Assembly (NCBI GenBank): GCA_965220165.1
Contig: CBDCPJ010000053.1
Location: 7,143 to 71,142 of the forward strand
Direction of reading: 5' to 3'
Source of the DNA: Spirochaetia bacterium
GTDB lineage: Bacteria; Spirochaetota; Spirochaetia; G963692905
Length of the DNA: 64,000 nucleotides
Shown here piece after piece: positions 6,290 through 56,330 of this stretch. The position numbers and the translations under genes were made by a program. The stretch's first letter is position 1; each line of letters opens with the position of its first letter. The notes under the pieces are model-generated. The model saw only the letters and a list, made by a program, of their open reading frames with translations. It was not told where the DNA came from and made no database searches.

Positions 6290-6397
6290 ATATTCCTCTA
6301 CCAGAGTATGGGGAAGGGGGGAAGCGCGCCGAAAGCGAGTAACGCCTCTTGATCGCGGAGCGAATTTCTCCTTCGAAGACGCCTATGGAGGCGTTGT

Positions 6398-6570
6398 CTC
6401 CCCCCTCGCTCCATAGCGCCTCCGAGCCGATCAAAGATCGGCTCGGACCGCGTCCGCCGAATCGGGCTCCACTCGCGCTCCGCCCTGTTGGCCGCTGGCG
6501 CTATTCCGCTACCCCCCTCTGCGGGCGTCGCCTCTCCAATTGCGAGAGACCGGCGCCGCTCAATCGCGCC
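6398..6570. repeat. partial copy (GC-rich module only) of the dispersed ~300-bp repeat family
   Basis: ctcgctccatagcgcc...gctattccgctacccccc aligns with full copies at 36129, 37911, 44824. Central hairpin ccgagccgatc-aaa-gatcggctcgg. Confidence 0.6.
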
Positions 6571-6659
6571 GCCTGCCCAGCAACCATGCCCGCAACGCCC
6601 AAACAAACCTACAATATTCTATCGCGGCGCTCATAGCTCATAGCGGCAAACGGCGCCGT

Positions 6660-27651: not shown

Positions 27652-27883
27652 GCGGGGATATTGGGCGTTGCGGGCGTCGCGATTTTCGTGTTTCGTTTTT
27701 CGGGCGTTGCCCGCAGTGGGGGTAGCGGAAGACGGGAAGATGATCGGCGGGCGGTTTAGCCCGCAATTGCCTGCGTAGCAGGCAATTAGATCATCGGTAT
27801 CGCAAGCGCTTCGCGCGCGGCGATATCCCGTCTGGAGCGAGGGGGCGACTGCCCCCCTTGTACGATAATGGCTCGTTCGGCGA

Positions 27884-31739
<3,856 letters not shown>

Positions 31740-35740: not shown

Positions 35741-36010
35741 CTATTTCCGGAGATTCAACTGACGTAGCACCGATCGATATCGTTCCATATCGTTATTTTG
35801 TAAATATCGAAGCAATCGCCGCCGTTTGCCCACCATCTTGAGCAAGCCCCGCCGCGAGCTATGGTCTTTCGAATGCATCTTAAAATGGTCGGTAAGATAC
35901 CGAATTCGTGTGGTCAACAGGGCTATCTGCACCTCTGTTTTCCCGCTATCTTTGGCAGTTACGCCAAACTGTTTAATAATCGACTGCGTGTCGATCACAC
36001 TACTTGACAT
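35741..36010 (-). CDS. rpsO: 30S ribosomal protein S15
   Basis: 89 aa. [12 protein letters not shown]-like motif. Classic pnp-rpsO pair. Confidence 0.9.
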
Positions 36011-36128
36011 GGTATATACAGTCTCCTTTTATGTGTCACTACGGATATACAAAATATAATAAATCAAAAACCGCATTTATGCAAGGGCATATTTTCAATT
36101 AAAATAATAAGAAGGGGAAATACAAGAA

Positions 36129-36425
36129 GGGGGAAGCCCCCTACGCTCCATAGCGGCTCCGCGTCTCGCAAAGCTCGACGCGGACCGCGTCCGTCTGATC
36201 GGGCTCCGCTCGCGCTCCGCCCTGACAGACGCTGCCGGCTATTGCGCTACCCCCGGGCAACTCTTCAACCGGCCACAAGCCTCCCGCTCCATGACGGGCC
36301 AGCTCCGCGCGAATAGTAGTCGTAGACGATATCGGTATAATTTCACAATAACCTCTTGACATTTATTGAAAAATTGTTAATCACAATGTGAGATAATTTC
36401 TGACTATATTTAAAATGAGGAATAT
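36129..36425. repeat. full copy R1 of ~297-bp composite repeat (GC-rich palindromic module + AT-rich promoter/SD module)
   Basis: Near-identical to 37911-38206 and 44824-45120. Starts with GGGGGAAGCCCCC hairpin. Ends ...TTGACA...TGtGAGATAAT...AAAATGAGGAATAT. Confidence 0.85.
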
Positions 36426-36427
36426 GG

Positions 36428-37789
36428 GTGCAAATGGATGTGAATGATATTGGGTTATACAGTTGGCGGAAGTTCTTTAGAGGATTGGGCAAAAAGCTAT
36501 GTGAGATTGGCGACCAAAATAATCGAAATAATCGAAATGACAAGATGTGCCGGTTAGCGAAGGATATTTTTGGAGATGATAAAGCCAGCGATCCTGTTTC
36601 GTTTGTTTGTCGGTGCTCTCGGAATAAAGATAAAAACACATGGAAAAAAATCACATGGAAAGGTAGCCGAAAAATATGGGTTGCTGTTTGCAGATATCAA
36701 GGATCATAGCTATCCTGTTGCAACAAACGATAAGTATGCCAAGTGTGATGCTAACGAATACAATGCTCTCTGGGAGATATTTGTAGCGGCATACAAAGCG
36801 AAGAAAATCGGTGGATTCGATGTCGATAACGCGCTTCGATTAACCGCCTCGTCGCTAGAGCGCTGTCGATTAAAGAGATCAGCGTTCCAAAGCTTACGCA
36901 TGTGCTTTTTTTGATCAATCCCGATGTTTTTGTCCCCATAGACAAGCACACATGCATTCCGCTCACTGCGATCTATAGCGATAAAGGAAACACAAACAAA
37001 ATTTTGACGAGCATAAAAAAAGGCACGTATAAATATGTTGATGCGGCGAGGGAGTTGTCCGACTGTTTTCCCAAATGTAAGCCATACGAAATATCACTTT
37101 TCTGTCGATTAGCGGCATATTATGTAGATTCTAGAAGCCTGATGGTTAATGCAAGAGATGGGATCAAACAATTAGTGGGCGAGGATTTAGTGGGCGAGGA
37201 TTTTGGGCAGGGATTTTGAGCTGGCTGATGAGGTGAGGTTGGTTTCAGATAAACCGGAAGGCGACGAGGACTCAAAAATGTGGGAATTCAGAGAAAATAA
37301 CCACGTTCGGCTAGGCTTGCTAATAGACGACGAAAGCAATGGTAACCGCGATAACACCACTACTTATTATCGGGATTATGCGAAGGTTAAGCCTGGCTGG
37401 TTCATGATTGCTATCAGTGGGCAATCTGTTTGTATGTTGGGATTGGTGGTACAAAGCTCAGCGTATGGAAAGAATCTGGAGGAATTTAAAAAGGATCAGT
37501 ATCCTATTCATGTAGTCTGGATGAATTGCGAAAAACCTCATAACGTGGATGGAGGCAAGAAGCCTTCCCTACATCGATATAACAGCTCATGGAAGATGGA
37601 GCCCGACGTAGAACAAAATTTTCCCAAATCGTATAGGATTATCAAAGCTATACAAGCCGGGCACCGGTAAAACATATCTTGCAAAAGAAGTTGCAGCTCT
37701 GATAAATATGAATGTGCAGTTCATCCGTCATACGACTATACCGATTTTGTCGAGGGTTTGCGGCCGGTAAATGAGGATAGCGACGCTTG
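36428..37789 (+). pseudogene. McrB-like AAA+ GTPase (5-methylcytosine restriction subunit B family), copy 1, frameshifted and truncated
   Basis: Fragments in three frames. Ends with Walker A KPGTGKTYLAKEVAA and, after repairing 1-nt shift, QFHPSYDYTDFVEGLRPV (McrB signature). Truncated at duplication junction 37789. Confidence 0.6.
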
Positions 37790-37910
37790 ACATGGTATAT
37801 ACAGTCTCCTTTTGTATGTCACTACGGATATACAAAATATAATAAATCAAAAACCGCATTTATGCAAGGGCATATTTTCAATTAAATAATAAGAAGGGGA
37901 AATACAAGAA

Positions 37911-38206
37911 GGGGGAAGCCCCCTACGCTCCATAGCGGCTCCGCGTCTCGCAAAGCTCGACGCGGACCGCGTCCGTCTGATCGGGCTCCGCTCGCGCTCC
38001 GCCCTGACAGACGCTGCCGGCTATTGCGCTACCCCCGGGCAACTCTTCAACCGGCCACAAGCCTCCCGCTCCATGACGGGCCAGCTCCGCGCGAATAGTA
38101 GTTAGACGATATCGGTATAATTTCACAATAACCTCTTGACATTTATTGAAAAATTGTTAATCACAATGTGAGATAATTTCTGACTATATTTAAAAGGAGG
38201 AATATA
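37911..38206. repeat. full copy R2 of composite repeat
   Basis: ~99% identical to R1 (3-bp deletion). Ends AAAAGGAGGAATATA. Confidence 0.85.
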
Positions 38207-38263
38207 GGTGCAAATGATGAGAATGATATTGGGTTATACAGTTGGCGGAAGTTCTTTAGAGGA

Positions 38264-39452
38264 TTGGGCGAAAAGCTATGTGAGATTGACGACCAAAATA
38301 ATCGAAATGATCGAGATGACAAGATGCGCCGGTTAGCGAATGATATTTTTGAAGATGATAAAGCCAGCGATCCTGTTTCGTTTGTTTGTCGGTGCTCTCG
38401 GAATAAAAAACACATGGGAAGGGTAGCCGAAAAATATGGGTTGCTGTTTGCAGATATCAAGGATCATAGCTATCCTGTTGCAACAGACGATAAGTATGCC
38501 AAGTGTGATGCTAGCGAACACGATGCTCTCTGGATGATATTTGTAGTGGCATACAACGCGAAGAAAATCGGTAGATATATCGATTTCGATCACGCGTTTG
38601 TGACTAACCGCATCGTCGATAGAGCTCTGTCGATTAAAGAGATCAGCGTTCCAAAGCTTACGCATGCGCTTTTTTTGATCAATCCCGATGTTTTTGTCCC
38701 CATAGACAAGCACACATGCATTCCGCTCACTGCGAACTATAGAGATAAAGGAGACACAGACAAAATTTTGACGAGCATAAAAAGCGGCACGTATAAATAT
38801 GTTGATGCGGCGAGGGATTTGTCCAACTGTTTTCCCAAACGTAAGCCATACGAAATATCACTTTTCTGTCGATTAGCGTCACCACAACTACTTGCCGGGA
38901 TTATGTGGAGGTTAAGCCTGGATGGTTCATGATTGCTATCAGTGGGCAATCTTTTTGTAAGTTGGGATTGGTGGTACAAAGCTCAGCGGATGGAAAGAAT
39001 CTGGAGGAATTTAAAAAGGATCAGTATCCTATTCATGTAGTCTGGATGAATTTCGAAAAACCTCATAACGTGGATGGAGGCAAGAAGCCTTCCCTACATC
39101 GATATAACAGCTCATGGAAGATGGAGCCCGACGTAGAACAAAATTTTCCCAAATCGTATAGGATTATCAAAGCTATACAAGCCGGGCACCGGTAAAACAT
39201 ATCTTGCAAAAGAAGTTGCAGCTCTGATAAATATGAATTTGTGCAGTTCCATCCGTCATACGACTATGATGAAACGCAAAAGATATATCCCGATTTTTAC
39301 CACAAAGATCAGCCGATAGTATTGTCAGGATACCTATGAGCAAAGACTATAATGATTTTCAGCAGTTCTGTGAGAAAATGGACGAGGCAGAGAAGAAGTT
39401 TATTGAGGAAATAGGCAAGACTGATTGTACATCTGGCAAAAATATTGAGTAA
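38264..39452 (+). pseudogene. McrB-like AAA+ GTPase, copy 2, decayed (N-terminal frameshift, ~250-bp internal deletion, AAA+ region scrambled)
   Basis: ~93% nt identity to copy 1. Retains KPGTGKTYLAKEVAA and FVQFHPSYDY. No McrC partner downstream. Confidence 0.55.
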
Positions 39453-40186: not shown

Positions 40187-40984
40187 CTAGCCGTTCAGGT
40201 CGCAGCCCAGAAAGTCGCGTTTCTGTAGCTTGCAGGCCTCCATCACCGAAAAACTTCCAGCGGCCGGGTCGATCACAATATCGCCCTCGTTGGATACGGC
40301 GGCAATCAATGTGCCTTGCAGGTTGATAGGCTTCTTATGCGTGTGTCCGCTTCTTTGTACCTTCTCCACCAATACATCGGGAATGTCGTGAATCTTCCAG
40401 ACCCCTTTTGCCCTTAGCGGCTTTTTTTGCAACACTACGACATGCTCGCTGGATCGACGCGTCCGATACCCCATGCCGATTCTGTCTTTATGCCACGTAA
40501 CCATATCCACGACGCTCAGATGCGTTTCGTTCAGCCACTCCGAAAATCCGGTGCAAAGGTGAAATTTGTCCATCCAGAGAAAAAGATGGCCGCTTGGTAT
40601 CAGGACATTGGATATTCTCCGTATAAATTGGCATATTTTTTCCTCGTCCATCTGCTCCAGCGCAAAACGTTGTTGCCCGCGATTTTTGCCCTCGTTGCCA
40701 TACCCCAATTTATCCAGCACGCCTCGATATTGCGGATCAAAAAAAGCGACGGGAATGCTGTCTGCGGGCAATTTGCCAAGGAATTTCAGTCCGTCCATTT
40801 TCAGGCGCGTATTGAGGCGCAATCCTCGCGGAATTGCTATTTTGGGAGATTGAACTTCCCGATTGTTGCCAAACACAGTATTCTGCGTCGTATCGGGGAT
40901 AGGATCGGCATTTTTTATCTTTCGAGCCGGGCTGCTCATAAATTTGCTCCCGAACAGGGCAAGCAATTGCATTTGGCGCCGCAT
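40187..40984 (-). CDS. beta-class DNA methyltransferase (N6-adenine or N4-cytosine), motif IV variant DPQY
   Basis: ...LPADSIPVAFFDPQY (motif IV) precedes HTHKKPINLQGTLIAAVSNEGDIVIDPAAGSFSVMEACKLQKRDFLGCDLN (motif I, FxGxG-type). Order IV->I indicates beta class. Confidence 0.75.
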   Translation of the reverse strand: MRRQMQLLALFGSKFMSSPARKIKNADPIPDTTQNTVFGNNREVQSPKIAIPRGLRLNTRLKMDGLKFLGKLPADSIPVAFFDPQYRGVLDKLGYGNEGKNRGQQRFALEQMDEEKICQFIRRISNVLIPSGHLFLWMDKFHLCTGFSEWLNETHLSVVDMVTWHKDRIGMGYRTRRSSEHVVVLQKKPLRAKGVWKIHDIPDVLVEKVQRSGHTHKKPINLQGTLIAAVSNEGDIVIDPAAGSFSVMEACKLQKRDFLGCDLNG

Positions 40985-44794: not shown

Positions 44795-44823
44795 TCCCCC
44801 ACAATACAATACAATATCATAAG

Positions 44824-45120
44824 GGGGAAGCCCCCTACGCTCCATAGCGGCTCCGCGTCTCGCAAAGCTCGACGCGGACCGCGTCCGTCTGATCGGGCTC
44901 CGCTCGCGCTCCGCCCTGACAGACGCTGCCGGCTATTGCGCTACCCCCGGGCAACTCTTCAACCGGCCACAAGCCTCCCGCTCCATGACGGGCCAGCTCC
45001 GCGCGAATAGTAGTCGTAGACGATATCGGTATAATTTCACAATAACCTCTTGACATTTATTGAAAAATTGTTAATCATAATGTGAGATAATTTCTGATTA
45101 TATTTAAAAGGAGGAATATA
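44824..45120. repeat. full copy R3 of composite repeat, abutting oppA start codon
   Basis: Identical architecture to R1/R2. Ends AAAAGGAGGAATATA immediately before ATG 45121. Confidence 0.85.
45050..45114 (+). promoter_or_regulatory. repeat-borne promoter-like module and Shine-Dalgarno for oppA
   Basis: TTGACA 45050-55. Extended -10-like TGaGATAAT 45083-91. AAGGAGG 45108-14, 6 nt before ATG. Confidence 0.45.
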
Positions 45121-54543: not shown

Positions 54544-54699
54544 ATTTCCTCCATAGACGGTGAATATCTATAGATAGTATAGGCGCTATTTTTCGATTGC
54601 GCAAGCCATGGTTTCGTCGCTTCGATTACGGAGGGGCAAGGTTGATTGTTTTGTTGGGCGTTGCGGGCCATTTTTCTGGAATATTTCCAACTGGGCGAT

Positions 54700-54790
54700 T
54701 GGCGCCCGCAGAGGGGGGTAGCGGAATAGCGCCTGCGAGCCGAGCTTTGATCGGCTCGCAGGCGCTATGGAGCGAGGGGGGAGACAGCGA
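54700..54790. repeat. partial, shortened copy (reverse orientation) of GC-rich repeat module
   Basis: gaggggggtagcggaatagcgcctgcgagccga-gctttga-tcggctcgcaggcgctatggagcgaggggggag. Perfect 16-bp central stem. Mirror G6 tracts. Confidence 0.6.
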
Positions 54791-54862
54791 AAACAGAGGC
54801 GTATGCCGAAGCGAAGGGACGCTTGTCGATTGATGCGGGTTATATCAATAGGCGTCATACTT

Positions 54863-54878
54863 CCCCCCCCTTTTTTTT
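54863..54878. repeat. homopolymeric C8-T8 tract ~105 nt upstream of adenylate cyclase start
   Basis: ttCCCCCCCCTTTTTTTTct read directly. Confidence 0.9.
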
Positions 54879-54982
54879 CTAGATATTTTTCTTGCGGGTA
54901 TAGCGGGCGATCTATTTTTGCTCGGGGAGCGGCGAAATGAGGTGCTTGTATTACTTGCGACTTTGCGCTAAATACTAGATGT

Positions 54983-55666
54983 ATGAGTAAAAAAGATGTT
55001 TTTTCTCCTGCCGTTCTTGAGGAGATAAGGAAATATGAGGATAGAAGCGAACGACTGATTGCGTTTTTGCAGATGGGCTTTGTTATTATCATGGGGTTGT
55101 TCTATACAATTTCTCCCAAAGGATTCGATGAAACGTCAGTTGTTTTCAGGCCTGTTCCCACCGTTATCGGTATTTATGTGCCAATTTTAATTGTTCGCGC
55201 GATACTGAGCTTTTTTGAAAAGATGCGAGGGATTGCACTGCATATTTTTACGTTTCTTGATATAGCGATTATTATATCGCTTATATGGGTCTATCATATA
55301 CAGTATCAAAGCGATCCCGCTATATCGCTTAAAGCGCCGACATATGTTTTTCTCTTAGTATTTATTGCCATTCGCAGCCTGCGCTTTCGGGCGAATTATC
55401 TTGTGACGGCGTTGCTCACCTCATTGATAGGATGGGTGGGGTTGCTTGTCTATTCGATAATGAATCTCGGGGGGGCGTCGGTTACCAGTTCGTTTGTCGA
55501 TTATGCCACGAACAATGCTATTCTTATTGGGGCGGAGGTCGAAAAAATGATCGGCATTGTGCTGGTGGGCATCGTGTTGTATCTTGGGGTGCATCGTTCA
55601 AAGCAGCATGTTGGCGTTCTCTCGGCAACAAGATGTCGCCGTTCGGAGTATGTCCAGTTTTTTTAA
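54983..55666 (+). CDS. adenylate cyclase, N-terminal 6-TM membrane module (upstream part of gene split at T7 tract)
   Basis: Six hydrophobic helices. Stops at TAA created by T7 at 55658-64. Removing one T fuses in frame to the downstream cyclase domain (QFF-NPQVVKR). Confidence 0.55.
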   Translation: MSKKDVFSPAVLEEIRKYEDRSERLIAFLQMGFVIIMGLFYTISPKGFDETSVVFRPVPTVIGIYVPILIVRAILSFFEKMRGIALHIFTFLDIAIIISLIWVYHIQYQSDPAISLKAPTYVFLLVFIAIRSLRFRANYLVTALLTSLIGWVGLLVYSIMNLGGASVTSSFVDYATNNAILIGAEVEKMIGIVLVGIVLYLGVHRSKQHVGVLSATRCRRSEYVQFF

Positions 55667-56330
55667 TCCTCAGGTCGTTAAACGTATCACTGAAGGGAGA
55701 GAGCTTGCTCCGGGATATGGGCAACAGCGCGATATTATTGCGTTGTCTATCGATTTGCGAGGGTTTTCCGTATTTTCTATATCTCATACTCCGAAAGAGG
55801 TTATGTCTACACTTTCGAGCTACCAAAAGCAGGTTATTCCTATTATTACCCGGAATCACGGCGCGATAGACAAATTTATGGGCGATGGGATGCTTATTCA
55901 TTTTGGCGCTGTTGACGAGCGACCCGATTATGCCGCCAATGCGTTGCGAGCGACCGAAGAGATTATCAAAGAGCTTACGATATGGAATGACGAACGAGTC
56001 GACGAGGGGAAATCGGTAATTCAATTTGGTATCGGCGCGTCGCTTGGAACGGTTGTTTTTGGCACTGTGGGCAACGAGGAGCGCCTTGAATTTACGGTAA
56101 TTGGCAAGGCGGTCAATAGTTCGGCAAAATTTGAGTCGCATAATAAAAAGCTAAAGACCTACTTTATTACTACCTATCGAACATATAAAGCCGCCGTAGA
56201 GCAGGGGTATCGTCCAGCTATTAAATATCGTAAATATGTTAATCAACATGTTCCCGGGCTTCCGGACGCGCTTGATTTGGTGGGTATACCGATGTCTGTC
56301 GTGCAACAGAGCGGGGAGTTGGCGCGATGA
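55557..56330 (+). CDS. class III adenylate/guanylate cyclase catalytic domain (downstream part of split gene)
   Basis: RDIIALSIDLRGFS, FMGDGMLIHFG, TVIGKAVNSSAKFE are CHD motifs. Real N-terminus supplied by 54983 ORF after -1 correction. Confidence 0.6.
   Translation: MCWWASCCILGCIVQSSMLAFSRQQDVAVRSMSSFFNPQVVKRITEGRELAPGYGQQRDIIALSIDLRGFSVFSISHTPKEVMSTLSSYQKQVIPIITRNHGAIDKFMGDGMLIHFGAVDERPDYAANALRATEEIIKELTIWNDERVDEGKSVIQFGIGASLGTVVFGTVGNEERLEFTVIGKAVNSSAKFESHNKKLKTYFITTYRTYKAAVEQGYRPAIKYRKYVNQHVPGLPDALDLVGIPMSVVQQSGELAR

Follow-up and report, generated by a model that had tools for sequence, protein, structure and literature searches.

The 64-kb stretch of DNA analyzed here (the window), which judging by its genes belongs to the core chromosome of an uncultured Treponema-like spirochete, contains a real and previously undescribed family of repeats. 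The repeat recurs, lies strictly between genes and adopts a common fold in which three helices covary around fixed unpaired motifs; it is also present in other genomes. As the branched fold has been kept through paired base changes, this is a genuine structured repeat and no chance palindrome. We give an about even chance to the reading that it is a non-coding, interspersed, GC-rich family of the REP/REPIN or MITE kind, which occurs in at least two distant spirochete lineages and whose single-stranded form folds. What goes beyond the observations is inference: that the repeat moves, that it passes through a single-stranded state, and that a protein of a particular kind recognizes it. To our knowledge, structured interspersed repeats have been characterized mainly in Proteobacteria and a few pathogens, with essentially none in Spirochaetota outside Borrelia. 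The Spirochaetota family offers unusually clean covariation, with three helices, fixed loops and swappable cargo, and its compact invariant motif is usable directly as bait for a binding or mobilizing protein. Because the repeat breaks metagenome assemblies and adjoins promoters of core genes (rpsO, folA, gatB), it affects binning quality and the annotation of regulation.

Copies of the repeat in the window

Six copies of the module were identified in the window, at 6398 (A), 27714 (F), 36128, 37910 and 44822 (B1, B2 and B3) and 54710 (C), all of them intergenic and located among housekeeping genes. The GC content of the element is 64–77%, compared with about 50% in the host genome. The existence of a repeat family agrees with the original prediction, all of whose quoted sequences are present where it had placed them, but the family extends further, with six copies in the window as opposed to five. 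The flank motifs were found at five and two sites (five if relaxed), compared with 0.00 expected in shuffled sequences. That the host is an uncultured Treponema-like spirochete is indicated by nearby genes of the Pfam families TP_0126 and TP_0679 and by the phosphofructokinase (PFK) adjacent to copy A, whose nearest homologue is only 62% identical.

Copy A (6398–6520; model match, 97.5 bits), whose G-rich strand is the minus strand, lies between the stop of PFK (6660) and the start of DHFR (6289) in a pfk-folA arrangement with both genes on the minus strand. Previously regarded as partial, it is a complete module of the same length as B. In plus-strand coordinates, its parts are C6 (6400–6405), GC (6408–6409), TCC (6410–6412), a second TCC (6505–6507) and a second C6 (6512–6517), together with P1 (6413–6420 with 6497–6504), hairpin 1 (6421–6447) and the apex motif (6464–6485). 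As had been predicted, the central hairpin is perfectly self-complementary; its stem measures 12 bp (TCCGAGCCGATC/GATCGGCTCGGA, 6421–6432/6436–6447). The module continues into an extension characteristic of the A/C/F subfamily (6521–6608, minus strand; conserved end ...GCCCGCAACGCCCAAACAAAC), where GCGGGC (6521–6526) pairs with GCCCGC (6588–6593) to form an extra hairpin, HP0. Similarity between A and C spans 6366–6608 and 54648–54815, respectively, and the segment GGGCGTTGCGGGC...GCCCGC of their extension is also present in F.

Copy C (54710–54790, plus strand; model match, 45.8 bits; fold z-scores −5.8 and −6.0), located between hisI and a membrane/cyclase gene, is the short form of the module and lacks hairpin 2. 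It consists of G6 (54713–54718), TAGC-GGA, an 18-bp hairpin in which P1 and hairpin 1 are stacked, GGA-GCGA and a second G6 (54776–54781). The hairpin (54726–54743/54751–54768) is perfect and is flanked by the two G6 tracts, both of which the original prediction had described for this reverse-oriented copy, and it is the longest perfect inverted repeat of the window. The HP0 region of C (54648–54709, plus strand; conserved 5' end GTTTTGTTGGGCGTTGCGGGC) pairs GCGGGC (54663–54668) with GCCCGC (54704–54709). The neighboring membrane-protein ORF (54983–55666) overlaps an ORF of a different frame that encodes an adenylate/guanylate cyclase domain (55557–56330), and the two may represent a single frameshifted or slippage-dependent cyclase gene (54983–56330). 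About 100 nt upstream of the gene at 54983 there is a C9T9 tract (54863–54881), and a G4AAG6 tract (6310–6322; C tracts on the folA sense strand) is found 20–35 nt upstream of the folA ATG. Both tracts lie close to gene starts and look similar to the poly-G tracts that make promoters of Treponema tpr genes phase-variable.

Copy F (27660–27857, plus strand) was detected with a covariance model for which A, B, C and D (a type from a second spirochete, see below) had served as input, so that F lies outside the training set; the match scores 46.9 bits, with E about 1e-7. It is flanked by two minus-strand genes, murJ (stop at 27884) and a Peripla_BP_2 gene. Its 5' part consists of HP0 (27670–27675/27709–27714), G5 (27718–27722) and TAGC-GGA, followed by P1, AGACGGGA (27730–27737) with TCCCGTCT (27826–27833), and on the 3' side by GGA-GCGA, G5 (27841–27845), a loop and C6 (27852–27857). 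F thus shares the frame, and its P1 is perfect although new in sequence; the interior hairpins are entirely different and the apex motif is missing; its fold z-scores are −5.9 and −7.9. In a sister assembly from ENA (L020, L019; 3–4x long-read coverage), murJ, TGT and GAPDH are split by single-base indels, which are likely to be assembly errors rather than biology.

Copy B1 (36128–36258, minus strand; model match, 105.3 bits) occupies the region between the divergent rpsO (start at about 36012, minus strand) and a fragmented gene (36428, plus strand). It contains a G5AAGC5 hairpin (36129–36141), P1 with one bulged base (36150–36157 with 36234–36242), hairpin 1 (36158–36184), the apex (36201–36222) and C5 (36250–36254). 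Copies B2 (37910–38040, minus strand) and B3 (44822–44952, minus strand) are identical to B1; B2 lies within a 1.78-kb tandem duplication, likewise in an rpsO-fragmented gene interval, and B3 between a cNMP-binding gene and an oppA-like gene. The stem predicted for these three copies, TCCGCGTC/GACGCGGA, is present (e.g., 36158–36165/36177–36184 in B1). They had been presented as the full copies, but they do not constitute independent evidence: being near-identical through segmental duplication, they are counted here as one lineage.

Each unit of the tandem duplication (36003–39200; unit of about 1.78 kb) contains the repeat, a promoter region, a broken gene and a copy of the rpsO start. The two copies of the rpsO start and promoter (36003–36140 and 37786–37923) match at 86%, and the broken gene consists of 2–4 frameshifted ORFs (36428–37670; 38264–39195) with no Pfam match. 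As the duplication adjoins a gene for an N6_N4 methyltransferase (40187–40984), the locus may be a decaying restriction-modification locus. A 300-nt cassette (36119–36418 and 44813–45112, 98% identical), of which B3 forms the left end upstream of the SBP_bac_5 gene, begins exactly at the G5AAGC5 hairpin. At both sites it stops 1–2 nt short of a start codon, although the genes concerned, the fragmented gene and the SBP_bac_5/OppA-like gene, are unrelated. This cassette looks like a transplanted promoter-plus-RBS unit. It also carries a second, degenerate half-frame (36276–36297, plus strand; CCTCCCGCTCCATGACGGGCC; regex match at 36287), whose sequence suggests nested or tandem remnants of another copy.

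Common fold and covariation of its helices

All copies share a frame that on the G-rich strand reads G5–6, (U/A)AGC, GGA, P1, interior hairpins, P1', GGA, GCG(A/U), G5–6. The GC dinucleotides pair across this frame, leaving a symmetric 3x3 GGA/GGA internal loop, and P1 is an 8-bp helix. In A, B and D, the interior consists of hairpin 2 and hairpin 1, resulting in a three-way junction within the frame helix; the deleted form C is the only single-hairpin form among the copies. In the long forms, hairpin 2 is capped by an invariant 22-nt apex, GGGC-GGA-GC-GCGA-GC-GGA-GCCC, which repeats the GC/GGA-GGA motif beneath a GNRA-type tetraloop (GCGA). The frame-plus-apex module is two nested copies of one arrangement, a GC helix, a symmetric GGA-GGA loop and a further helix, between G runs. 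A small G5-loop-C5 hairpin is added on the 3' side in B, D and F, and the upstream hairpin GCGGGC...GCCCGC is common to A, C and F. In F, B and D (27714–27860; 36128–36258), the 5' G run can also pair with the 3' C run, which closes the whole element; this closure is an alternative to the small G5-loop-C5 hairpin, and two mutually exclusive conformations are possible.

The sequence of P1 is ATAGCGCC in A, ATAGCcGGC in B, AGACCGCG in D and AGACGGGA in F, with a matching partner arm in each case. What the original prediction had described as conserved outer arms is this 8-bp helix (ATAGCGCC/GGCGCTAT), which itself covaries, and covariation likewise reaches beyond the central hairpin into hairpin 2.

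Rows A, B and C and six type-D sequences were aligned with MAFFT, and the structure was specified by us from these same sequences. In this alignment, which represents only about five independent lineages, with nearly identical type-D rows, 13 of the 37 base pairs have changed on both sides and one on a single side, and 95.1% of the 204 cells are paired. None of 500 shuffles reached any of these measures, and slid controls, in which the partner column was shifted by 1–3 positions, gave 0–4 two-sided pairs. The expectation that pairing-preserving covariation reflects selection on the fold is thereby borne out in an alignment with more copies and lineages, in which substitutions are paired rather than random. 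Two-sided changes are seen in 4 of 8 pairs of P1, 5 of 9 pairs of the lower stem of hairpin 2 and 4 of 12 pairs of hairpin 1. A model-fitted alignment that includes F, and that leans towards the structure, has 13 two-sided pairs out of 26.

In pairwise comparisons of the central hairpins, aligned at the CAAAG loop, three double compensatory changes and two loop-proximal mismatches separate A from B, and a single swap, from C-G to G-C, separates A from C. Over the whole module, there are four compensatory pairs between A and B, compared with 0.56 expected from random placement of an equal number of substitutions (P about 0.001), nine between B and D, and five between A and D. The GGA/GGA loops are conserved and never repaired to pairs, and together with the GCGA loop and the 22-nt apex they are identical in hosts of 50% and 65% GC, whereas the helices differ. 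Because these loops are never repaired, the best reading of the alignments is that selection acts on a folded single strand. The idea that helices evolve faster than loops found no support: 16 of the 21 differences between A and B fall in paired columns, but so do 74 of the 107 columns (Fisher P=0.6).

Relatives in other genomes

Searches with a pattern of the 5' frame plus the CAAAG loop returned only a chance match in the genome-contig collection, within a coding region of an unrelated MAG (L002), and no match in the JGI metagenomes. Searches of viral, plasmid and phage collections yielded no copies, one chance match (L015) having been discarded. A scan with the apex motif, the literal sequence of which was not found in the literature searched, matched 12 JGI loci. 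Six of these, all from one sample, constitute type D, which keeps every part of the architecture, among them the G5AAG..C5 hairpin, ACGCTCC and TTCCGCT-C5, with different helix sequences. The type-D host is a member of Spirochaetota with 65% GC, and the nearest homologue of its GatB is 66% identical, this being the highest identity to any of the Spirochaetales MAGs. Type-D copies are near-identical, with differences mostly in loops, and five of the six are located at contig ends, which is typical of a recently amplified high-copy repeat. One element lies 43 nt upstream of gatB; in distant relatives of this host, gatA and gatB are 4 nt apart. No element was found in 39 kb from these relatives, and the type-D contig itself ends inside the element. 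The complete copy in L006, the only one with both ends readable, has 15-nt inverted termini, GTGAGGCGCAGATTG ... CAATCTTTGCCTCAC, and the same terminal motif occurs singly elsewhere.

Two further features of the type-D host were observed. It carries a second repeat family (L007:3495–3760, L014:1421–1720) that starts with GTGAGGCnnnGATTG, as is also seen at the ends of type-D elements; this motif may be either a shared transposon terminus or an independent regulatory site. Its GatB (L008:169–1977) is 602 aa long and has a low-complexity tail, and the closest relatives (L016–L018) encode GatB-asparaginase fusions of about 800 aa directly after gatA.

Five other loci of the apex scan (type E) and L003 are minimal: a frame-like GC-GG(Y)/(G/A)GA-GC sits directly on the apex hairpin and is preceded by a 5' G run. 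Genes on these contigs include those for methanogenesis marker 12 (L012), CDC48 and archaeal-type enzymes (L010) and RuvC (L003). Since these loci were retrieved by means of the apex, and a GC-rich 22-mer is possible by chance in so large a collection, their kinship with the repeat rests on the additional frame matches, such as GGAGCGUG of L003, which is identical to type D; by this sequence criterion, the minimal forms are probably related to the family. In the methanogen-like contigs (L004, L005, L010, L011 and L012), the 22-nt apex hairpin is contained in a repeat of at least 200 nt, which also has conserved G/C-run palindromes, e.g., GGGAGGGG..CCCCCTCCC. If the archaeal minimal forms are true relatives, the motif marks an element or an RNA that moves between domains. 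A broader reading, which we consider rather unlikely, is that frame-plus-apex would be a new, widespread recognition structure, shared by Spirochaetota, the bacterium of the ruvC contig and methanogen-like archaea, and would serve either as the handle of a hitherto unrecognized, domain-crossing class of single-strand mobile element or as a new protein-binding class of non-coding RNA; in both cases, the downstream C run could pair with either the 5' or the 3' G run and so act as a switch.

Nature of the repeat and comparison with known systems

If the repeat is of the REP/REPIN or MITE kind, its unit would consist of two G (or C) runs that bracket a short GC helix, a 3x3 GGA/GGA (UCC/UCC) loop and the 8-bp P1; the G/C runs are counted as part of this unit since type D has conserved them along with it. 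This frame would enclose a modular cargo of one to three hairpins, with the cargo hairpin of the long form ending in the invariant apex. The element would be copied or maintained via a one-strand state, either single-stranded DNA during transposition or replication, or RNA upon read-through. A trans-acting, probably dimeric, structure-specific protein would read the invariant unpaired motifs of the frame and apex, and as the helices would need only to pair, they would drift by compensatory changes while the loops stay fixed. The best precedent for such a recognizer would be a strand-specific HUH/Y1 enzyme of the RAYT or IS200/IS605 type.

By analogy, the modularity of the family, with C devoid of hairpin 2 and the interior of F swapped, resembles the decay or variant forms of mobile repeats, and the patchy distribution between distant hosts and a GC content far above that of the host support this reading. 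Several observations stand against it. No gene for a transposase or RAYT was found among the about 55 larger window ORFs scanned, all of which are housekeeping or unknown, or among the larger ORFs of roughly 80 kb of type-D and type-E loci. Insertion polymorphism was not seen, A, B3 and F being identical in a second strain (99.7–99.9% identity). No direct repeat indicative of a target-site duplication flanks L006 or the window copies, and the window copies have no clear terminal inverted repeats, A, C and F sharing only a 7-nt internal inverted match. The GAAG of type D, the branched junction and the small number of lineages behind the covariation also count against this reading. A place among the REPs or MITEs is not established: the unit differs from a REP doublet, GTAG does not occur in all types, and neither a RAYT nor a terminal inverted repeat or target-site duplication can be demonstrated in the window. 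Furthermore, the trend towards co-orientation described below and the two type-D cases in which the element ends only about 45 nt before a start codon are easier to reconcile with an RNA or a 5' leader than with a selfish element.

This brings up the possibility, which we consider doubtful but not negligible, that the repeat is a structured RNA functional in the host and transcribed from the G-rich strand, being either a cis-acting leader or intergenic element (mRNA stabilizer, processing site or insulator) or a small RNA present in multiple copies. Roles as mRNA stabilizers, processing sites or insulators are known for some REP and ERIC copies. Within this RNA, the three-way junction, the GNRA tetraloop and the purine-rich GGA/GGA loops might bind a protein. 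Conserved loops combined with covarying helices are as found in functional RNAs, the apex loop GCGA is a GNRA tetraloop on the G-rich strand, and the non-Watson-Crick cells on that strand are G.U (2) and G.A/A.G, whereas on the C-rich strand they would be C.A and C.U. However, wobble pairs number two versus one between the strands, too few to assign a strand, and the folding energies of the two strands are similar, whether RNA or DNA parameters are used. In 8 of the 10 readable contexts (7 of 7 before F was counted), the G-rich strand has the sense of the gene that follows, as at folA, rpsO, the gene at 54983, gatB, a GFO/IDH/MocA gene, genes in L009 and L013, and a site downstream of an MCP gene, but these cases are not independent, and the proportion is therefore not significant; F and B3 are antisense to both neighbors, and the minimal type-E copies are mixed in orientation. 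B and F end, on the G-rich strand, in the G5-loop-C5 hairpin followed by a T-rich stretch, which is terminator-like in B (36142–36128 at B1, minus strand); as an intrinsic terminator, only this small G5-CTT-C5 hairpin of type B scores, and the main module has no U tract. No conserved promoter was seen upstream of A, C and F, while a good promoter separates the element from the gene at rpsO and in L013, the downstream genes have no common function, and C lacks the apex, which is the most conserved part. A gathering scan of the window with Rfam 15 yielded two tRNAs only, and permissive scans of the A, B, D and E regions gave only noise (E>0.07). A precedent in favor of an RNA comes from plasmids of Borrelia, which carry intergenic repeats with conserved RNA-type folds (PMC2674063). 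Two specific RNA functions were considered and rejected: an autoregulatory S15 leader, because the element at rpsO precedes the promoter of this gene and occurs at unrelated genes as well, and a CsrA sponge, because GGA is preceded by C or U and is placed in internal loops rather than hairpin loops.

Two further explanations do without a selected single strand. The perfect palindromes of C (18 bp) and of hairpin 1 in A (12 bp) are the end state expected if changes were copied between arms by DNA mechanics, that is, by quasi-palindrome template switching in replication or by gene conversion of the arms, and few lineages are at hand. Arm-to-arm correction is an established mutational process that makes palindromes more perfect. 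It should also erase unpaired features, and the retention of the GGA/GGA loops, of the A.G opposition in P0 and P1 and of the bulge in P1 of B, despite up to nine replaced pairs, therefore counts against this explanation, as do the covariation of P1 arms about 80 nt apart, across two intervening hairpins, and the invariance of the 22-nt apex across hosts of very different GC; we regard it as very unlikely. Also very unlikely is that the element acts as duplex DNA, in the form of a cruciform or an operator to which a dimeric regulator or a nucleoid protein binds near promoters. Its dyad symmetry, the flanking homopolymer G/C tracts and its position just upstream of promoters at rpsO, the fragmented gene, the oppA-like gene and in L013 would suit such a site, but a dimer would conserve the sequence of its half-sites, whereas here the arms vary freely and only complementarity is kept. 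In addition, on one strand the conserved motifs are mirror images of each other (TCC...TCC), an arrangement that makes no dyad in duplex DNA, and the distance between arms ranges from 7 to about 90 nt.

The preferred reading, a REP/REPIN- or MITE-like repeat, can be compared with several known systems. Compensatory changes have been reported as common in REPIN hairpins (PMC3116915), and recognition by TnpA-REP is specific for single-stranded DNA and for one strand and requires unpaired features and a 5' tetranucleotide (PMC8266576). Like REPs and REPINs, the spirochete repeat is short, GC-rich, strictly extragenic and present in many copies, it forms imperfect hairpins in single-stranded DNA or mRNA, and in A, B, C and F the G-rich strand has GTAG (as GGTAGC) ahead of the frame. 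In this place, however, type D has GGAAGC (GAAG), and the minimal types have GGUGCC or GCUGCC. A REPIN consists of two inverted REPs that form one long hairpin, whereas the spirochete element is a framed multi-branch junction with a swappable interior, and a RAYT gene was not seen in the scanned loci. We know of no REP counterpart of the G/C-run brackets and the repeated GGA/GGA loop motif.

The repeat is also similar to MITEs such as ERIC/IRU, Correia/CREE, RUP and BOX (PMC3184786) in that it is 100–300 nt long, non-coding and intergenic, is often located by gene ends or promoters and can carry promoters or terminators, and one type-D copy has the 15-nt inverted termini. In contrast to MITEs, the window copies are without clear terminal inverted repeats or target-site duplications, no parent IS has been identified, and internal unpaired motifs are conserved rather than termini. 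PATEs derived from IS200/IS605 have subterminal imperfect palindromes that are read strand-specifically as single-stranded DNA, and they likewise have no terminal inverted repeats and no target duplications. Members of the IS200/IS605 family are known from Bacteria as well as Archaea, a distribution that would agree with minimal forms in methanogen-like contigs. Unlike in PATEs, there is no TnpA or TnpB gene near the spirochete repeat, and the frame and apex motifs are nested rather than placed at opposite ends.

Within spirochetes, the plasmids of Borrelia carry intergenic stem-loop repeats whose modeled stems show multiple compensatory changes (PMC2674063). They have no sequence similarity to the repeat described here and are simple stem-loops of 11–21 bp on AT-rich plasmids, as opposed to a chromosomal, GC-rich, branched element. 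Nevertheless, the two have in common spirochete hosts, repetition, an intergenic location, stems maintained by compensatory changes and a MITE-like placement.
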